Source: a virus | Lineage: Duplodnaviria; Heunggongvirae; Uroviricota; Caudoviricetes | Direction: 5' to 3' (one strand) | Virus record (IMG/VR): IMGVR_UViG_648861009_000009 | Length of the DNA stretch: 43,791 nucleotides | In this document: piece after piece, positions 2,794 through 34,530 of the stretch | Layout: each line of letters begins with the position of its first letter | Position numbering within the stretch: position 1 is the stretch's first letter | Notes under the pieces: model-generated | Told to the model about the DNA's origin: nothing | Seen by the model: only the letters and a program-made list of their open reading frames with translations | Databases searched by the model: none | Program-made: the position numbers and the translations under genes

Positions 2794-4930
2794 GAAACTT
2801 CCCCATTGGTTGAAAATATGGCTCCTCCAACTCCAAGTGTATTTCGTGTTGTGCTCAACCTAAGAGGGCTGGAGTCAGAATTAGAATATCCTGTAGCAGA
2901 AATAAAAGATCCTCCACTAATAGTCAACTGCGGAACATCGGCTATATCTGAATAAGTTCTGTCAGCAACAGTATTATTTATAGCCACATGTGATCCAAAA
3001 AAACTTCTTATTGTTTGGTTTTTAACTTTACTTCCTTCAATGGTTATCCTACTACCACAGTCAGCAATAAATCCTGAATCTGCATCCAGCGTTGCATTCA
3101 TAAAAGAAGCTTCAGATCTCTCTACATCAATCCATCTAATATCTTTTGTGGGATTTGCACCAAATACATGACAAATATTAGAGTTAAACCTTACACCATC
3201 TTGGAGGTGCATTAATTTTTTTATATCTGTACCCCATAGCCTTGGAAAATTAACAGATGCTCCTGCATGGCAATCAAATCCCAACTCAGCCCCTGAGATA
3301 TCTACAGCCTTTCCTGAAATAACAGCACCAGTGTCTGCATTAACGGCTGTTCCACAATTGCGCATATCATTACCAGCAATATCAACACAACTCGCACCAT
3401 CAATACGCACACCAAGTGCACATCCATAAAAACCTTTTTCAATATTTGGTTCAAGGACTTTACCACTTGTTTCTGCATCACTTTCTTCAACGTCATGTCG
3501 TCTTGCATCAACATATGCTGTATGAATGCAGGTTAATCCACGATATGAGCAATGTATAGTTTTATGGTCGCGTATATTAACATTTNNNNNNNNNNNNNNN
3601 NNNNNNNNNNNNNNNNNNNNNNNNNNNNNNNNNNNNNNNNNNNNNNNNNNNNNNNNNNNNNNNNNNNNNAACCATCTCTTACATTCCATCCTATATAACA
3701 ATAGCTTGCACTTGACCCCTGAAAATCTGCTTTAACATTATAAATACAATTAACTGACGCAACCGTACTCTCTGTGCACCGTTCAAACTTGCTTACAGGC
3801 ATTGATGCCTTGACATTATTTACCAGTTGCAGGGAAGAGTATCTGCTATAAGAAAAATCACATACGTAATACCCTTCTGGCATATATGCAGCAACACTTT
3901 CCTCATCAGGAGCACATCCGGTATGATATGCACTAATTTTTGCACCAAAGCTACCATGAATTCCAACGTAGAACTTTCGAGCACCTGAATACGGATAGAA
4001 ATTAAGTTCAGCTTTTTGAGTTACAATAAATGCACAAACATCGCTATCATCTCTATTTTCTTCAATCTGAATAGCAAATACAGGACTTTTTGCTGCATCG
4101 CAAATGTAAAATAAATATTTGTATTCGTAATACGTCCTAACAGTTTTAGTAAACAAACTGGTATCAGAGAAAACCACTGAGTCTTCTGATATTATTTTAA
4201 TCCATGATAAGTCACATCCTGCTGAAATTTCTATTTGCTCATTGAGCACAAAACCGGAAAGAATTTTAATTATGCAAAAGTCAATGCCATTTTTCCATAG
4301 TGGACGCAGTGCAACAGCCGAGTTTAGAGCATCACTAATAGATTTAAAATTACCATATTCCCCAACTGTTATTGTGAATGCATACCTGGAATTAAATACT
4401 GCGGCACTCTCTCCAGAGTTAATAGCTGCAGATATCATGTCATAATTTGATATAAAATCATTTGGCGTGATTATTTCTGCGTTTTTATTGTGCTGTGTTC
4501 TAAGTTTTGAATTTACATGAACACTTTTAACTGCAATACGGGAGTCGTCAACAAGTATTTCATTACCCTCTGTTGCTAACTCTTGTCTTAACTGATCCGG
4601 GTCATACTTCAGCACATTCGGAAAATTGAACTGCTGTGCACCATACGCATCATAAACAGCCATAGAATGGCCTTGCTCAGTTACGAATTTGGCAATCTGT
4701 CCGTTATATACAGGGTAACCAGCAGCGTTAATGATGATTGGTTGCGATACAGGAACGTGAGAACCGTCTTCATTCTCCACATAAACCTGAATCTGGTTTT
4801 CAGGATTTACAGGGTCAGTGTCAATTTTTCCGATATAAATTTTGCCATTGGCAACCGCTTTAAAAGAACGTGCCATAGTGAAGAGTTGCGAAGGCATCGA
4901 TACGATCACATTGGCTGTAATGTCTGTCAT
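2790..4930 (-). CDS. Tailspike protein, P22 gp9-type N-terminal head-binding domain plus distinct receptor-binding domain; interrupted by assembly gap
   Basis: N-terminus [43 protein letters not shown] matches P22 tailspike; ORF spans N-run 3586-3669. Confidence 0.85.
3586..3669. other. Assembly gap (84 N) inside tailspike gene
   Basis: Run of N. Confidence 0.95.
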
Positions 4931-5108: not shown

Positions 5109-6032
5109 TCAGTAGTTATGTACTGAAGGAGGTAATTCTTTATTCTTAAGTCTCATCCATGCTGAAAGATTCGTTGGTCCGTCTGGCTCATTAATATCAA
5201 CATCTCGTGTATGGTTGATTAAAACATCTCTCGCCATATCGATAATACGGGAGAACTCATAACCGCAGTCATGACATCTGCCGGAATAGTTCGATTGAAT
5301 TTGTTTTAATGCCGGATACAGTTCGCGGAATAATGCCTGTGAGCGGTTGGCATAATCCCATAACCATACAAGGCTGTTTGCTTCTTTTGCAGAAAGCTCG
5401 TTTGCTTTCTTCTCTTGTTTGCCAATGAACTCACCTTCAAGTGGAACTCGAGCTGCAAGTGACAGTGCTTCTGTAAACTGCTCCTCACTGATTTCTTTGT
5501 ACGAACATCCAAAATGGGATTTCAGTGACGACCACATGGTGATCATCGCCTTAGCCTGTTTTTCTTTTGGCAGAGACTGACCGCGACTCATGACGAGTTG
5601 TTTAATGGCTTCCTGCTGTTCAGTGGTAATTTTACCCGGCAACGCCTTTTTAGCTTTGCGTGGGTTAACTACATGGCCTTTAGTCCAGTACTCGTATAGC
5701 ACATCGTCACACTCTTCCTGATACTGGATTACCTTGTCGCGGATTTCAGGACGGACTTTGTTTGGTTGAATACTTGAAAGCCAAGCCGCAAATTTACGAA
5801 AGGCAAGACATGTCATTAACTGTTTACCGCCAGCAGAAGGTATTTCGATTTCCGAAATACCTTTGGCAAACCTCTGTTTTAACTTAACAAATTGAGCTGC
5901 CCAAACCATCCCCATGCCTTCAACAACAGGCTTCATAGGAACATAAGGCTCATTGTTAATTCCAACCAAAAAAAGATTTGTTCCGTGGAATGGAACATTG
6001 ATTGTGCGATCTGCAATTGCTAAACTAGTCAT
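5109..6032 (-). CDS. ant: Antirepressor Ant (AntA N-domain type)
   Basis: 307-aa ORF at the immI position adjacent to tailspike, downstream of arc-like gene; RBS AGGAA. Confidence 0.75.
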   Translation of the reverse strand: MTSLAIADRTINVPFHGTNLFLVGINNEPYVPMKPVVEGMGMVWAAQFVKLKQRFAKGISEIEIPSAGGKQLMTCLAFRKFAAWLSSIQPNKVRPEIRDKVIQYQEECDDVLYEYWTKGHVVNPRKAKKALPGKITTEQQEAIKQLVMSRGQSLPKEKQAKAMITMWSSLKSHFGCSYKEISEEQFTEALSLAARVPLEGEFIGKQEKKANELSAKEANSLVWLWDYANRSQALFRELYPALKQIQSNYSGRCHDCGYEFSRIIDMARDVLINHTRDVDINEPDGPTNLSAWMRLKNKELPPSVHNY

Positions 6033-6265: not shown

Positions 6266-6406
6266 TCACACTGTTACCCCCTCCCTCTTCAGGCTGTCCA
6301 GCACCCGTTTAATTACTTCTGCACTGAATGAGCGACACTCTTCCTTTGCTTTTTCTTCAAGAATTTTTTCTAGCTTCTCTGGCATACGCAGTGTTTTAAC
6401 CTTCAT
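6266..6406 (-). CDS. arc: Arc-like ribbon-helix-helix repressor
   Basis: 46-aa ORF MKVKTLRMPEKLEKILEEKAKEECRSFSAEVIKRVLDSLKREGVTV; RHH pattern like P22 Arc; RBS GGAGGA; upstream of ant; below ORF-track cutoff. Confidence 0.6.
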   Translation of the reverse strand: MKVKTLRMPEKLEKILEEKAKEECRSFSAEVIKRVLDSLKREGVTV

Positions 6407-6511
6407 TGTATCCTCCGTTGTATGTGGTACGCATACATAGTATTTAGGTACGCATTGATAGTCAATAGATACCTACATATCCTGTGGTAAAAAATTATTC
6501 AGGATGCGCCG
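6407..6511. promoter_or_regulatory. immI divergent promoter/operator region
   Basis: Direct repeats GGTACGCAT at 6426-6434 and 6447-6455 (21-bp spacing); TGTGGTA at 6423-6429 and 6483-6489. Confidence 0.4.
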
Positions 6512-6676
6512 ATGTCTGATCGTAAGTACAAAAACCCTCAAGTGAATCTGAGGCTTCCTGTAGAGATAAAGGAACGTCTTATTGAACTGGCTGAGGCTAA
6601 TTCTCGTTCATTAAATGCTGAGATGGTCGCGGCACTTGAAGCGTGGACCGAAAAAATAAACACATTCAAGCACTAG
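6512..6676 (+). CDS. mnt: Mnt-like RHH repressor, apparently truncated (C-terminal domain in -1 frame to 6759)
   Basis: 54-aa ORF MSDRKYKNPQVNLRLPVEIKERLIELAEANSRSLNAEMVAALEAWTEKINTFKH divergent from arc; downstream frame encodes LATIASRLIDLEHDVETLKTMYGKDK. Confidence 0.55.
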   Translation: MSDRKYKNPQVNLRLPVEIKERLIELAEANSRSLNAEMVAALEAWTEKINTFKH

Positions 6677-6761
6677 ACCTTGCAACTATAGCATCACGAT
6701 TGATAGATCTTGAACACGATGTTGAGACGCTAAAGACCATGTATGGTAAGGATAAATAAAT

Positions 6762-7040
6762 ATGACAGATACCAAAGTGAACTTCAGAGAAACCATCTTC
6801 AAGGACTCAAGTGATGCTGTAAATGAGTATGCTGATGGATTTGCTTACTCGTCTTTTGGGGATGTCGGAGCAAGATTTGGTTCAATAGCATTTTTTAAGC
6901 ATGTTTCAGACTGGGTTAATAATGAGGAGATTCAGCCAGTTAGATACCAAATTGCCAACATTCGCATGAGTGAAAATCAACTTCTTGAACTGGCTAAGTA
7001 TATAGTTTCTCAACACGAAGAATCAAAAAAATTAAGCTGA
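6762..7040 (+). CDS. Hypothetical soluble protein, first gene of sieA-position cassette
   Basis: 92-aa ORF, RBS AAGGA, no TM. Confidence 0.5.
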   Translation: MTDTKVNFRETIFKDSSDAVNEYADGFAYSSFGDVGARFGSIAFFKHVSDWVNNEEIQPVRYQIANIRMSENQLLELAKYIVSQHEESKKLS

Positions 7041-7047
7041 CAGAGCC

Positions 7048-7608
7048 ATGATTACTTTTCCTGCCGTAAATGCTGATCATGCAGCGGAGAAAAAGAGAAC
7101 TCTTGGTCGTATGGGGTCGACAGGTGGCATAGGAGAAAAGTCCAATGCTTCGCCTCCAGTTACCAAGAATGATATAACCAAAAACAATAATATCGCTTAT
7201 CTTGGAAAACAATACACTGAGGAGCATGCTATGGGCAGCCCATCAAGAGAAGAGATTGACGCGAAGCTTGGTCAAAACAAAGCAGAAATTGAGTTAATAT
7301 CTGCTAACATGCGCGCTGAAATTTCAGCTTTCAGAGAATTCCAATCTAAGCAATTTACAGCTATGAATCAGTCCCTTAATGAAATTAAGGGACAGATATT
7401 CGCTAGCAATGGCGAAGTTGCAGGGCTCAAAGGTCAAATTGATGGCATTAAAACATCCATGACCGCGACCCAATGGCTCGTTGGTGCGGTTCTCGCTATG
7501 CTTGCGGTAATCATAACGCTTCCGCAGATTCAATCTTACTTCAAGGTTTCTGAGCCGACTGCGAAGGAAGCCGCTAGTGAAACCCATGATACCAAAATAA
7601 AGCAGTGA
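7048..7608 (+). CDS. Coiled-coil protein with C-terminal TM anchor (start may be 7231)
   Basis: 186-aa ORF; strong RBS GAGGAG before internal ATG at 7231; C-terminal WLVGAVLAMLAVIITLP. Confidence 0.5.
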   Translation: MITFPAVNADHAAEKKRTLGRMGSTGGIGEKSNASPPVTKNDITKNNNIAYLGKQYTEEHAMGSPSREEIDAKLGQNKAEIELISANMRAEISAFREFQSKQFTAMNQSLNEIKGQIFASNGEVAGLKGQIDGIKTSMTATQWLVGAVLAMLAVIITLPQIQSYFKVSEPTAKEAASETHDTKIKQ

Positions 7609-7636
7609 TCTTACCAATAAAACCTGGGAGGACAAC

Positions 7637-7864
7637 ATGAAGCAATGGCTCATCATAATTGCTGTTTTTTTGCTCATTTACACTGTTTTCCCAACATTAA
7701 AAGCACCAATGCAAATAATTTCACTGGCAATAATTGCGATTGGTGCTTTCATTGCTGTAGCCGTACTTGTGTTTAAGGTTTTAAAGTTTTTAGTTTGGCT
7801 ATCAAAAGATGATGGATGCAAAGTTCATCAAGAAAAAGAAGGCAAAATAACCAAAGTTGACTAA
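7637..7864 (+). CDS. Small 2-TM membrane protein
   Basis: 75-aa ORF, RBS GGGAGG, two hydrophobic helices, charged C-terminus. Confidence 0.5.
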   Translation: MKQWLIIIAVFLLIYTVFPTLKAPMQIISLAIIAIGAFIAVAVLVFKVLKFLVWLSKDDGCKVHQEKEGKITKVD

Positions 7865-23225: not shown

Positions 23226-23693
23226 TCATTTCAGGCACTGCGTGTTGATGTATTCCTGCAGCGCTCTCAGTGATGTTTGGTCGCTGATGATTCCGGATCT
23301 GATACTGAGAACGTTTCGTCCAGCAACTGGAGAGAGTTCGACGGTGGCATCATTGCCCATGCCGGAGGTGCGGGAGGTTTCGGTTGAGGCTGGCACTTGA
23401 CACTTTCCTTTGACGAGCACCCTGCCACCATTATCAAGCTTGCGCCGAAGAGCATCATTTTCAGCTTTCGCATCAGCTAACTCCTTCGTGTATTTTGCAT
23501 CGAGCGCAGCAACATCACGCTGACGCTGCTGCATGTCAGAGATGGTGGCGGTCGCCTGCTTCAGCTCACTGACTTTTTTATCGCGCTGCTCTTTGTAGGC
23601 GATTGCGTTATCACGGTAATGATTAACAGCCCATGACAGACAGACGATGATGCAGATAACCAGAGCGGAGATAATCGCGGTTACTCTGCTCAT
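23226..23693 (-). CDS. Rz: Spanin inner-membrane subunit Rz
   Basis: [31 protein letters not shown] near-identical to lambda Rz. Confidence 0.9.
23267..23473 (-). CDS. Rz1: Spanin outer-membrane lipoprotein Rz1 (embedded in Rz)
   Basis: +1-frame ORF inside Rz; lipobox VAGC; Pro-rich. Confidence 0.75.
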
Positions 23694-32752: not shown

Positions 32753-33469
32753 ATGGAAAATAAAAAATCACTGACGACAGAACAGCTGGAAGACGCTAAG
32801 CGGCTTAAGGCTTTGTATGAGTCAAAAAAGAAAGAATTGGGAATAACCCAATACTCAATCGCTGATGAACTGGGTATCACCCAAGGAGCGGTAGGGCATT
32901 ATCTTAATGGCAGAAATGCGCTAAACGTTGAGGTTGCATCTGGTTTTGCACGATTGTTGCAAGTCTCAATTGCTGATTTTAGCCAGTCAATTGCTGCCAA
33001 GGTTGCAGAACAGGCAGAAAGCCTTAAGAGCGATGCCAACGTAAGGTATGCAGGGGAATACAGAGCAGGAAAGAGGTATCCGGTGTTAAGCAGTATCCAG
33101 GCTGGCTCGTGGTGTGAAGCATGCGAACCATACACCATTAAAGACATAGATGTTTGGCTTGAGTCTGACGCGCATATTCAAGGTAATGCGTTCTGGCTTA
33201 AAGTGGAAGGTGATTCAATGACGGCACCGGTTGGGTTAAGCATTCCAGAGGGAACATTCGTTCTTTTCGATACCGGAAGGGAGGCGATCAACGGCAGCTT
33301 GGTCATAGCAAAACTTTCTGACTCTAACGAAGCAACATTCAAGAAGCTGATAATCGACGGCGGAAATAAATACCTCAAGGGACTTAATCCTGCATGGCCT
33401 CTCGTGCCAATCAATGGAAACTGCAAGATTATAGGCGTTGCAATTGAGACAAAACTCAGACTGGTTTGA
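32753..33469 (+). CDS. cI: CI repressor (HTH + LexA-like peptidase domain)
   Basis: 238 aa; LTTEQLEDAKRLKALYESKKKELGITQ and FWLKVEGDSMTAP...TFKKLI resemble lambda CI. Confidence 0.9.
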   Translation: MENKKSLTTEQLEDAKRLKALYESKKKELGITQYSIADELGITQGAVGHYLNGRNALNVEVASGFARLLQVSIADFSQSIAAKVAEQAESLKSDANVRYAGEYRAGKRYPVLSSIQAGSWCEACEPYTIKDIDVWLESDAHIQGNAFWLKVEGDSMTAPVGLSIPEGTFVLFDTGREAINGSLVIAKLSDSNEATFKKLIIDGGNKYLKGLNPAWPLVPINGNCKIIGVAIETKLRLV

Positions 33470-33487: not shown

Positions 33488-33856
33488 ATGGTTGGAACCG
33501 CTATAGCAAGCTTTTTGGGGATGTTGGCAATCTCAACAATTTACGGCTTAGCGCATGCTTTTATTGCGAAATCTCTATCAGAAAAAATAAGCCAGGCTTG
33601 GGCGCATAGATCAGCTCGTTTCATGATTCTAGTGATCATAGCAATACAAGGGATATCTGCATTTATCCTCTATGGATCAAGCTTATACCTATTGTATCAA
33701 GGCGCGACATTTACGCCTTACACCAGTGATTACGGAACCCTATACGATGGTAGTGAAGACATCTCTATGGCTTGGATCGTCTTTGGTTTATCTATGGCCG
33801 TGTCTGTTGTAGCAGACATCATTAAGGTAATTCTCGTCTTAACCTTCGCTGACTAA
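33488..33856 (+). CDS. Membrane protein at rex position (3-4 TM), function unknown
   Basis: 122-aa ORF, RBS AAGGGGG, 19 bp after cI stop on same strand, upstream of pL. Confidence 0.55.
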   Translation: MVGTAIASFLGMLAISTIYGLAHAFIAKSLSEKISQAWAHRSARFMILVIIAIQGISAFILYGSSLYLLYQGATFTPYTSDYGTLYDGSEDISMAWIVFGLSMAVSVVADIIKVILVLTFAD

Positions 33857-34224: not shown

Positions 34225-34530
34225 ATGACAGTAGTCATTACATATCTGGCTGACGATAACGCCAGAAATCGCCGCAGAGCACGCAGACAGGCTCAACGTG
34301 AGCAGGCAATGCAAGAACAGCGACTGGCGCGAAAAATTGCGCTAAAGCTCTCTGGTTGCGTCAGAGCAGACAAAGCAGCATCACTCGGAAGCCTTCTCTG
34401 CAAGAAGGCAGATGAAGTCGAGCGTAAACAGAACCGTATTTACTACCGCAAGCCACGCTGTGAAATGGGTGTGACTTGCTCAGGCCGCCAGAAGCAACGC
34501 GGAAAATCAATTCCAGCTTATTACGATTGA
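34225..34530 (+). CDS. N: N antiterminator (arginine-rich motif)
   Basis: 101 aa; N-terminal NARNRRRARRQAQ; C-terminal GVTCSGRQKQRGKSIP resembles lambda N. Confidence 0.85.
   Translation: MTVVITYLADDNARNRRRARRQAQREQAMQEQRLARKIALKLSGCVRADKAASLGSLLCKKADEVERKQNRIYYRKPRCEMGVTCSGRQKQRGKSIPAYYD

Follow-up and report, generated by a model that had tools for sequence, protein, structure and literature searches.

Three genes between mnt and a gp16-type ejection gene

We analysed a 43,791-nucleotide stretch of DNA from a tailed virus of the class Caudoviricetes (IMG/VR record IMGVR_UViG_648861009_000009), referred to here as the window, in which three small open reading frames (ORFs), called g1, g2 and g3, lie at positions 6762-7864. 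An earlier note on this DNA had described them as a three-gene membrane cassette in the slot that holds the superinfection-exclusion gene sieA in phage P22. All three ORFs were found on the plus strand, between the repressor gene mnt and a gp16-type ejection gene. The idea that they form one cassette was not sustained, since g1 and g2 also follow cI in lambdoid prophages and g3 occurs without g1 and g2. Rather, g1 and g2 are a tightly coupled, conserved pair, and the cassette is not one evolutionary unit. It is a new, unrelated set of genes in a known kind of slot. The features of the region are listed below with their best profile matches and expectation (E) values; lengths are in amino acids (aa), and TM denotes a transmembrane segment.

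5109-6032, minus strand: ant (Pfam P22_AR_N, E 8e-40; P22_AR_C, E 1e-27)
6266-6406, minus strand: arc (Pfam Arc, E 3e-8)
6437-6483, between arc and mnt: divergent Pant/Pmnt promoter-operator region (consensus matches only)
6512-6759, plus strand: mnt, Arc/Mnt-type ribbon-helix-helix (RHH) repressor, frameshifted (Pfam Arc PF03869, E 2.4e-10, for the 54-aa ORF 6512-6676)
6762-7040, plus strand: g1, 92-aa soluble acidic protein (phrog_4231, E 3e-47)
7048-7608, plus strand: g2, 186 aa, long coiled-coil-type helix and C-terminal TM (phrog_5820, E 5e-97)
7637-7864, plus strand: g3, 75-aa two-TM protein with a charged C-terminal tail (phrog_7294, E 1e-50)
7861-9984, minus strand: gp16-type ejection (DNA transfer) protein (full-length phrog_6704; phrog_770, 'DNA transfer protein', E 1e-26)

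The region, with the gene order ant-arc-mnt-g1-g2-g3-gp16, corresponds to the immI/sieA region of P22, read in the opposite direction. This agrees with the placement of the three genes in the sieA, or 'ant moron', slot of a P22-like prophage; the interval between gene 16 and gene 9 has been described as a variable 'ant moron' (PMC2629481). In relatives, the next gene after the gp16-type gene encodes a homologue of the Inj_translocase gp20. The left end of the window holds a formate/nitrite-transporter gene and an integrase. The stop codon of g3 (7862-7864) overlaps that of gp16 (complement of 7861-7863), and the two convergent genes share 4 nucleotides (nt), 7861-7864, just as had been noticed before.

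Several lines of evidence indicate that these frames are genes. The phrog_4231, phrog_5820 and phrog_7294 profiles, all labelled 'unknown function', are each covered almost fully by g1, g2 and g3, respectively, and homologues in the same gene order were found at identities down to 37-57%. A strong Shine-Dalgarno sequence, AAGGA, lies 9 nt 5' of the ATG of g1, and another strong one, GGGAGG, 5-6 nt upstream of g3. The Shine-Dalgarno sequence of g2 is weak, with its ATG 7 nt past the g1 stop. The good ribosome-binding sites claimed earlier for all three genes are thus present for g1 and g3, and not for g2. Compared with the diverged E. coli locus L004, both members of the pair are under purifying selection, with nonsynonymous (pN) and synonymous (pS) divergence of 0.22 and 0.81 for g1 and a nonsynonymous to synonymous rate ratio (dN/dS) of 0.30 for g2. 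For g3, dN/dS was 0.46-0.86 on few substitutions, so that constraint is not demonstrated by this measure. We conclude that g1 and g2 are real genes under constraint and that g3 is very probably a real gene. A 117-aa ORF on the minus strand (7324-7677), antisense to the 3' half of g2 and to the g2-g3 junction, is probably a chance frame.

Upstream of mnt, a Pmnt-like promoter-like site lies on the plus strand (6455-6483, TTGATA-17-TATCCT) and a Pant-like one on the minus strand (6465-6437), and an 18-nt imperfect inverted repeat (6441-6479) covers both divergent sites. On the plus strand, from the Pmnt-like site to the end of g3, neither a further promoter-like site nor a terminator-like site was found. 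The start of g1 is 2 nt beyond the stop of the full-length mnt frame, and the mnt and g1 reading frames overlap in L004 and in Salmonella phage UPF_BP1. Co-transcription with mnt, as proposed in the earlier note, fits this sequence arrangement.

The mnt gene of the window has a run of six A (A6) at 6651-6656, compared with A7 in nine of nine complete cassette-bearing E. coli genomes. As a result, the frame is split into a 54-aa RHH fragment and a 38-aa out-of-frame remainder that represents the C-terminal coiled-coil part; the product in relatives is 82 aa. The 1-base deletion may be a homopolymer sequencing error or a recent inactivation and, if real, inactivation of Mnt could derepress ant. 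An identical mnt allele, together with the promoter region, occurs in 184 complete E. coli genomes, among them NRG 857C, which we take to be a close relative of LF82 that carries a Gally-type prophage. Similarity stops at the mnt stop, and the differing cargo beyond it marks a sharp mosaic junction (6753-6767, from the mnt stop to the g1 start). Prophage Gally has the same mnt allele as the window and lacks g1-g2. Lysogens transcribe its mnt region, with 6- to 40-fold induction in macrophages (PMC9928086).

A repressor-linked pair and a separable neighbour

The order mnt-g1-g2 was found in the window, in E. coli loci L004-L007, in Morganella loci L008-L011 and in IMG/VR contigs L023 and L024. 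The diverged E. coli lineage has the full order mnt-g1-g2-g3-gp16, with protein identities to the window of 69% for g1, 60% for g2 and 95% for g3. P22-like prophages of Morganella carry mnt, an extra 92-aa gene, g1 (57%), g2 (37%) and, in the place of g3, an unrelated protein of 76 aa that combines a single TM with a coiled coil. In Yersinia aleksiciae, homologues of g1 (39%, E 1e-18) and g2 (55%) follow cI directly in a lambdoid prophage, ahead of the N region. The arrangement of a cI-type repressor (helix-turn-helix (HTH) and Peptidase_S24 domains), a small ORF and a g2 homologue recurred in phage HK97 (gp49/gp48), Y. aleksiciae, L014, L025, L026, L034 and L035-37, and a short HTH/Phage_CI_repr repressor takes the place of cI in L022 and L027-L031. 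A scan of IMG/VR with a g2 profile yielded 23 loci, and in all but one (L033) the small ORF and the g2 homologue are co-oriented after a repressor. The repressors upstream of the pair are of three unrelated kinds, namely Mnt, the cI type with HTH and Peptidase_S24, and the short HTH/Phage_CI_repr type. At every locus, g1 and g2 are separated by 0-15 nt or overlap by 13-14 nt. Both the pairing and the repressor linkage are directly observed. The sole exception, L033, at 3462-4465 of IMG/VR contig 2924493850_000002, has small membrane ORFs on the minus strand upstream, and not a repressor.

The small partner takes several forms. Apart from the g1 family itself, we found a second class of ~100 aa, unrelated Cys-rich proteins of 118-127 aa and a 147-aa protein. 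The ~100-aa class can be aligned with the g1 profile over its whole length (hhalign 82%, E 1e-5); the L014 protein L014_93 aligns with this class (hhalign 95%). The Cys-rich alternatives to the g1-like protein suggest that the partners are interchangeable. In the lambdoid contigs L025 (3631-4014) and L035 (3508-3864), the Cys-rich protein of 118-127 aa that is paired with the g2 homologue has two CxxC pairs, and the one at L035 matches phrog_4293, a family of unknown function.

The intact cassette is present in 9 of 5426 complete E. coli genomes, compared with 184 for the mnt allele. This patchy, mosaic spread is typical of accessory cargo. When species-representative genomes were scanned with the g2 profile (a pattern-based scan), only 5 loci came up, in five genera that all belong to the Enterobacterales. 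The module stands alongside both podovirus (P22-like) and siphovirus (lambdoid) virion genes, which argues that its role is not tied to one injection apparatus. Two E. coli assemblies have near-identical cassettes with shortened genes: in L041 (GCA_949768545.1), g2 was called as 125 aa, and in L044 (GCA_051218015.1), g1 is 57 aa and gp16 is 358 aa.

Hydropathy gave the architectures that had been predicted for the three products, with no TM in g1, one C-terminal TM in g2 and two TMs in g3. The g1 protein has no hydrophobic segment (maximum KD19 0.80) and an isoelectric point of 5.0, and its alignment has 36 invariant columns over 11 homologues with identities down to 56%. The AlphaFold2 (AF2) model, with a mean predicted local distance difference test score (pLDDT) of 73, is disordered at residues 1-20, followed by three long beta strands and a C-terminal helix. 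The family is tiny: an exhaustive profile search of 1.84 billion representative proteins found no more than 8 clusters (50% identity), none of them informative. The closest known systems include the COMM domain and dimer modules of the PC4/Pur-alpha type, which combine a beta sheet with a helix; no fold match of g1 was significant.

The g2 protein has a single hydrophobic segment at about aa 141-163. Its AF2 model has pLDDT <50 at residues 1-4 and 16-60 and shows a helix of low confidence at 5-20; a further, uninterrupted helix (67-157) leads into the TM. The conserved core extends from SREEIDAKL through the TM segment, and the motif at the N-terminus co-varies with the class of the small partner. 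Nucleotide identity to L004 rises from ~65% to 100% at about 7446, inside this core, and stays at 92-100% through g3 into gp16. Judged from this step, the position is a recombination breakpoint within g2, at which g1 and the first two-thirds of g2 are swapped together. In these lineages, the diverged block consists of g1 and that part of g2, and the remaining third of g2 is inherited jointly with g3 and gp16.

A faint resemblance of g2 to the CCDC90-like family (PF07798, formerly DUF1640, which includes MCUR1/CCDC90B) deserves mention. Members share a coiled coil followed by a C-terminal TM, and g2 matches the C-terminal half of the model. The window protein scored 21.5 bits (E 2.4e-4), below the gathering cut-off of 33.5 bits, and eight of nine aligned relatives gave similarly weak sub-threshold matches (best E 8.6e-6), possibly caused by coiled-coil and TM composition. 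One g2 homologue has a precomputed PF07798 match, which again may be compositional. These sub-threshold matches explain the PGAP label 'CCDC90 family protein' on some copies of g2; the family offers no bacterial or phage function that could be transferred to g2. PBSX XhlA, a coiled coil with a C-terminal TM that is encoded beside a two-TM holin, was also considered. This lead was rejected, as XhlA was absent from the Pfam matches at E up to 1 for g2 and up to 0.1 for 10 family members.

The third gene behaves differently. Its product has two hydrophobic segments and a charged C-terminal tail; an index of the assembly collection lists the exact protein in 1108 blocks, and no homologue was found below 83% identity. 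Of the 34 complete E. coli genomes that match any part of the cassette, 25 carry g3 and lack g1-g2. One of these is 55989, where other genes lie between mnt and g3 and homology to the window starts at the g3 start codon. Phages EC.P3 and E212 likewise have g3 without the pair. At the loci examined, g3 overlaps the same 707-aa gp16 type (gp16 is truncated in one listed copy). At other g1-g2 loci, g3 is absent or replaced by unrelated genes, including small envelope genes. Thus, g3 is a separate small inner-membrane gene that is inherited with the adjacent gp16 type. Small size, two TMs and a charged C-terminal tail are traits of a class II holin and fit g3. Nevertheless, the role of lysis holin can be rejected for g3: it matches no holin family, and the window has a lysis cassette at another place, with an S-type holin (PF05106, 24150-24473) and Rz (23226-23693).

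Comparison with HK97, UPF_BP1, lambda and P22

The best-known carrier of a g2 relative is HK97. Its gp48 is homologous to the g2 core (38% identity over 104 residues, E 3e-21) and has the same layout of coiled coil and TM. The 88-aa gp49 overlaps gp48 by 13 nt, and both lie directly after the repressor on the same strand, between cI and N. The differences are that gp48 and g2 have unrelated N- and C-terminal tails, that the repressor is cI and not Mnt, and that there is no third gene. Homology between gp49 and g1 was not supported (BLAST negative, hhalign <10% probability). A search of the literature on HK97 gp48/gp49, on DUF1640 in phages and on rex-slot hotspots found no functional study of these proteins.

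A second isolated phage, the Salmonella Lederbergvirus UPF_BP1 (NC_047875; L038), has mnt followed by gp49, a g1 homologue (45% identity) that overlaps it. The adjacent gp48 (149 aa) resembles g2 in architecture: its N-terminal region is of low complexity and rich in Gly, Ser and Met, and a coiled coil and a hydrophobic C-terminus follow. It has no detectable homology to g2 and belongs to phrog_3556. Between gp48 and gp16, and convergent with gp16, we noted an unannotated 62-aa two-TM ORF (3778-3966) with the ribosome-binding site AAGGAGG. It is an analogue of g3 by position and architecture and has no detectable homology to it.

In lambda, rexAB occupies the interval between cI and N, is co-transcribed with cI and is made in the lysogen; it is an abortive-infection system that works by depolarising the membrane when a phage is sensed. 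The lambdoid g1-g2 pairs fill this same cI-N interval. RexA/RexB and g1-g2 are alike in that two genes stand directly after a co-oriented maintenance repressor and encode one cytoplasmic and one inner-membrane product, as predicted for g1-g2. In size and architecture they differ: RexA has 279 aa and RexB is a four-TM protein, unlike the 92-aa g1 and g2 with its single C-terminal TM. No match linking g1-g2 to Rex was found in PADLOC-DB (assumed to include Rex models), Pfam or NCBIfam.

P22 SieA lies in the same slot, between gene 16 and mnt, is convergent with gene 16 and is an inner-membrane protein. It acts as an injection blocker, or exclusion protein, and is missing from most P22-like phages (PMC10883804). 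SieA (types A-C) is a single polytopic protein of about 160-200 aa, whereas g3 has 75 aa and two TMs, g2 has one TM and g1 has none. In P22, a terminator after orf59a and a separate PsieA promoter precede sieA; in the window the three genes follow mnt with no terminator-like site. The argument that genes downstream of mnt should be expressed like sieA is therefore inexact. Homology to P22 SieA, which the earlier note had named among the findings that would refute its proposal, was looked for by BLASTP, tblastn and motif, and none was found. The best BLASTP match of g1, g2 or g3 to SieA had E 4.5, and tblastn of SieA against the whole window gave a best E of 1.7. The motif FxRYPxEAxxFNK was absent from all six frames, there was no SieA-like ORF anywhere in the window, and there was no similarity to P22 orf59a.

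Elsewhere in the window, a 122-aa polytopic membrane ORF (33488-33856, plus strand; phrog_6534, unknown function, no Pfam match) starts 19 nt past a c2/cI-type repressor gene (32753-33469) and precedes an N-like gene (34225-34530). With it, the prophage has two membrane cargoes linked to a repressor, the second in a rex/bstA-type slot.

A candidate exclusion module and its alternatives

[quoted passage not shown] The pair would be an accessory (moron) module that rides on the repressor transcript, from Pmnt here and on the cI transcript in lambdoid phages; a module on the transcript of a maintenance repressor would be made in the lysogen. In this scheme, g2 would be a tail-anchored inner-membrane protein whose coiled coil and variable N-terminal region are cytoplasmic and whose short Pro/Gln/Ser-rich tail lies in the periplasm. 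This topology is suggested by the lack of a signal sequence, by the ~140 hydrophilic residues that precede the only TM and by the Pro/Gln/Ser/Thr-rich tails that follow it. The g1 product would be a small cytoplasmic beta-beta-beta-alpha protein with a dimer-type topology, made in fixed proportion through translational coupling and probably docking on g2 at its N-terminal part, which is specific to the partner. Recognition of the invader may then fall to the variable small subunit and the N-terminus of g2, with the conserved coiled-coil and TM part acting at the membrane. In the lineage of the window, g3 would be co-transcribed with the pair and yet inherited with gp16.

In favour of this reading are the linkage to repressors of three unrelated kinds, the clear g1 homologue of Yersinia, the tight coupling of the two genes, the co-variation and block exchange within g2, the patchy distribution and the presence beside both kinds of virion genes; the published accounts of the ant moron, of SieA and of Gally (PMC2629481, PMC10883804, PMC9928086) agree with it indirectly. 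Several points weigh against it. None of the three proteins is homologous to a characterised phage-resistance protein. PADLOC gave no match save a meaningless one at E 0.48, Pfam and NCBIfam had nothing above cut-off for any of the three (NCBIfam returned noise only), and sequence-profile searches of the PDB produced only coiled-coil or chance matches and no solved relative. With the SieA comparisons also negative, the earlier impression that no known family is represented has been upheld. The g1 model is of medium confidence only, and a fold search with it returned no significant match. Owing to the frameshift in mnt, regulation in the window may differ from that in intact relatives, or the prophage may be decaying, and the truncations in L041 and L044 reflect decay of both module and prophage in some strains. 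The expression of Gally mnt in LB was at background level (PMC9928086), so genes downstream of this Pmnt may be expressed conditionally. Lastly, a position downstream of a repressor also fits cargo with no defence role.

Such cargo, acting in membrane or stress physiology, host interaction or induction control, or as an addiction-like pair whose g1 member counteracts the membrane activity of g2 and/or g3 and thereby stabilises the prophage, is in our estimate a somewhat unlikely explanation. The positional evidence is the same as for an exclusion module, and a small acidic soluble protein encoded just 5' of a membrane protein would suit an addiction-like pair. Similar lambdoid slots hold non-defence genes, and lambda carries the non-defence cargo genes bor and lom elsewhere in its genome. 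The macrophage induction of the Gally mnt region, which shares the allele of the window, would also be in keeping with a role in the host (PMC9928086). However, deletion of Gally mnt left macrophage survival unaffected (PMC9928086), though Gally lacks g1-g2. Moreover, Pfam and NCBIfam held no match to a toxin-antitoxin, virulence or regulator family, and the diversified small partner and g2 N-terminus resemble an arms race more than housekeeping. We consider it far less probable, indeed very improbable, that the ORFs are non-functional remnants, that is, decaying or chance frames in a defective prophage. The frameshifted mnt, the truncated g1 or g2 in a few assemblies and the absence of clear purifying selection on g3 point in that direction. 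For g1 and g2, this explanation is already largely refuted: intact frames, gene order and invariant motifs are preserved across E. coli, Morganella and Yersinia, pN lies well under pS, a g1 homologue stands beside mnt in UPF_BP1, a plaque-forming isolate, and HK97 has a g2 homologue. For g3, the wide indexing of the exact protein argues likewise.

A functional replacement of sieA, in which g3, as the most plausible candidate, and/or another of the membrane proteins interferes from the inner membrane with the gp16/gp20 conduit of superinfecting P22-like phages, is improbable in our view. It draws on the slot shared with P22 sieA and its convergence with gene 16, and on the overlap and co-inheritance of g3 with this gp16 type, which is visible in the high identity to L004 from about 7446 onwards. 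Given this inheritance, a SieA-like role for g3 is possible. Yet SieA similarity and the SieA motif are lacking, g3 is far smaller than the polytopic SieA, its linkage to gp16 may reflect mere physical adjacency, and its dN/dS points to weak constraint on few changes. The pair itself also occurs in siphovirus-type lambdoid prophages that have no gp16/gp20, and so cannot be directed specifically at P22-type ejection proteins; for g1-g2, blocking the P22 ejection conduit in the manner of SieA is therefore unlikely. A Rex-type arrangement of sensor and membrane effector fits the pair better.

Extending the exclusion reading beyond the window, g1-g2, HK97 gp49-gp48 and their relatives could form an unrecognised family of repressor-coupled two-component anti-phage systems in enterobacterial prophages, a proposal we hold with considerable doubt. 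Each system would combine a tail-anchored coiled-coil effector with interchangeable small subunits, which, together with the co-varying N-terminal peptide of the effector, would set the phages that are sensed. The family would then be a structural alternative to RexAB, moving freely between immC (cI) and immI (mnt).

Prophage genes that are made during dormancy decide which other phages can infect a lysogen, and they are a main source of new defence mechanisms. Such lysogen-expressed genes matter for phage therapy and for the ecology of prophages in E. coli and Salmonella. Here, a pair with no characterised relative occupies both of the classic 'immunity' slots, that of rexAB and that of sieA or the ant moron, and includes genes of the model phage HK97. 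If the defence function is true, the architecture of the g1-g2 effector would be new, in that a tail-anchored coiled coil works with exchangeable small partners; if not, the pair would still be a conserved lysogen-expressed membrane module of unknown role.

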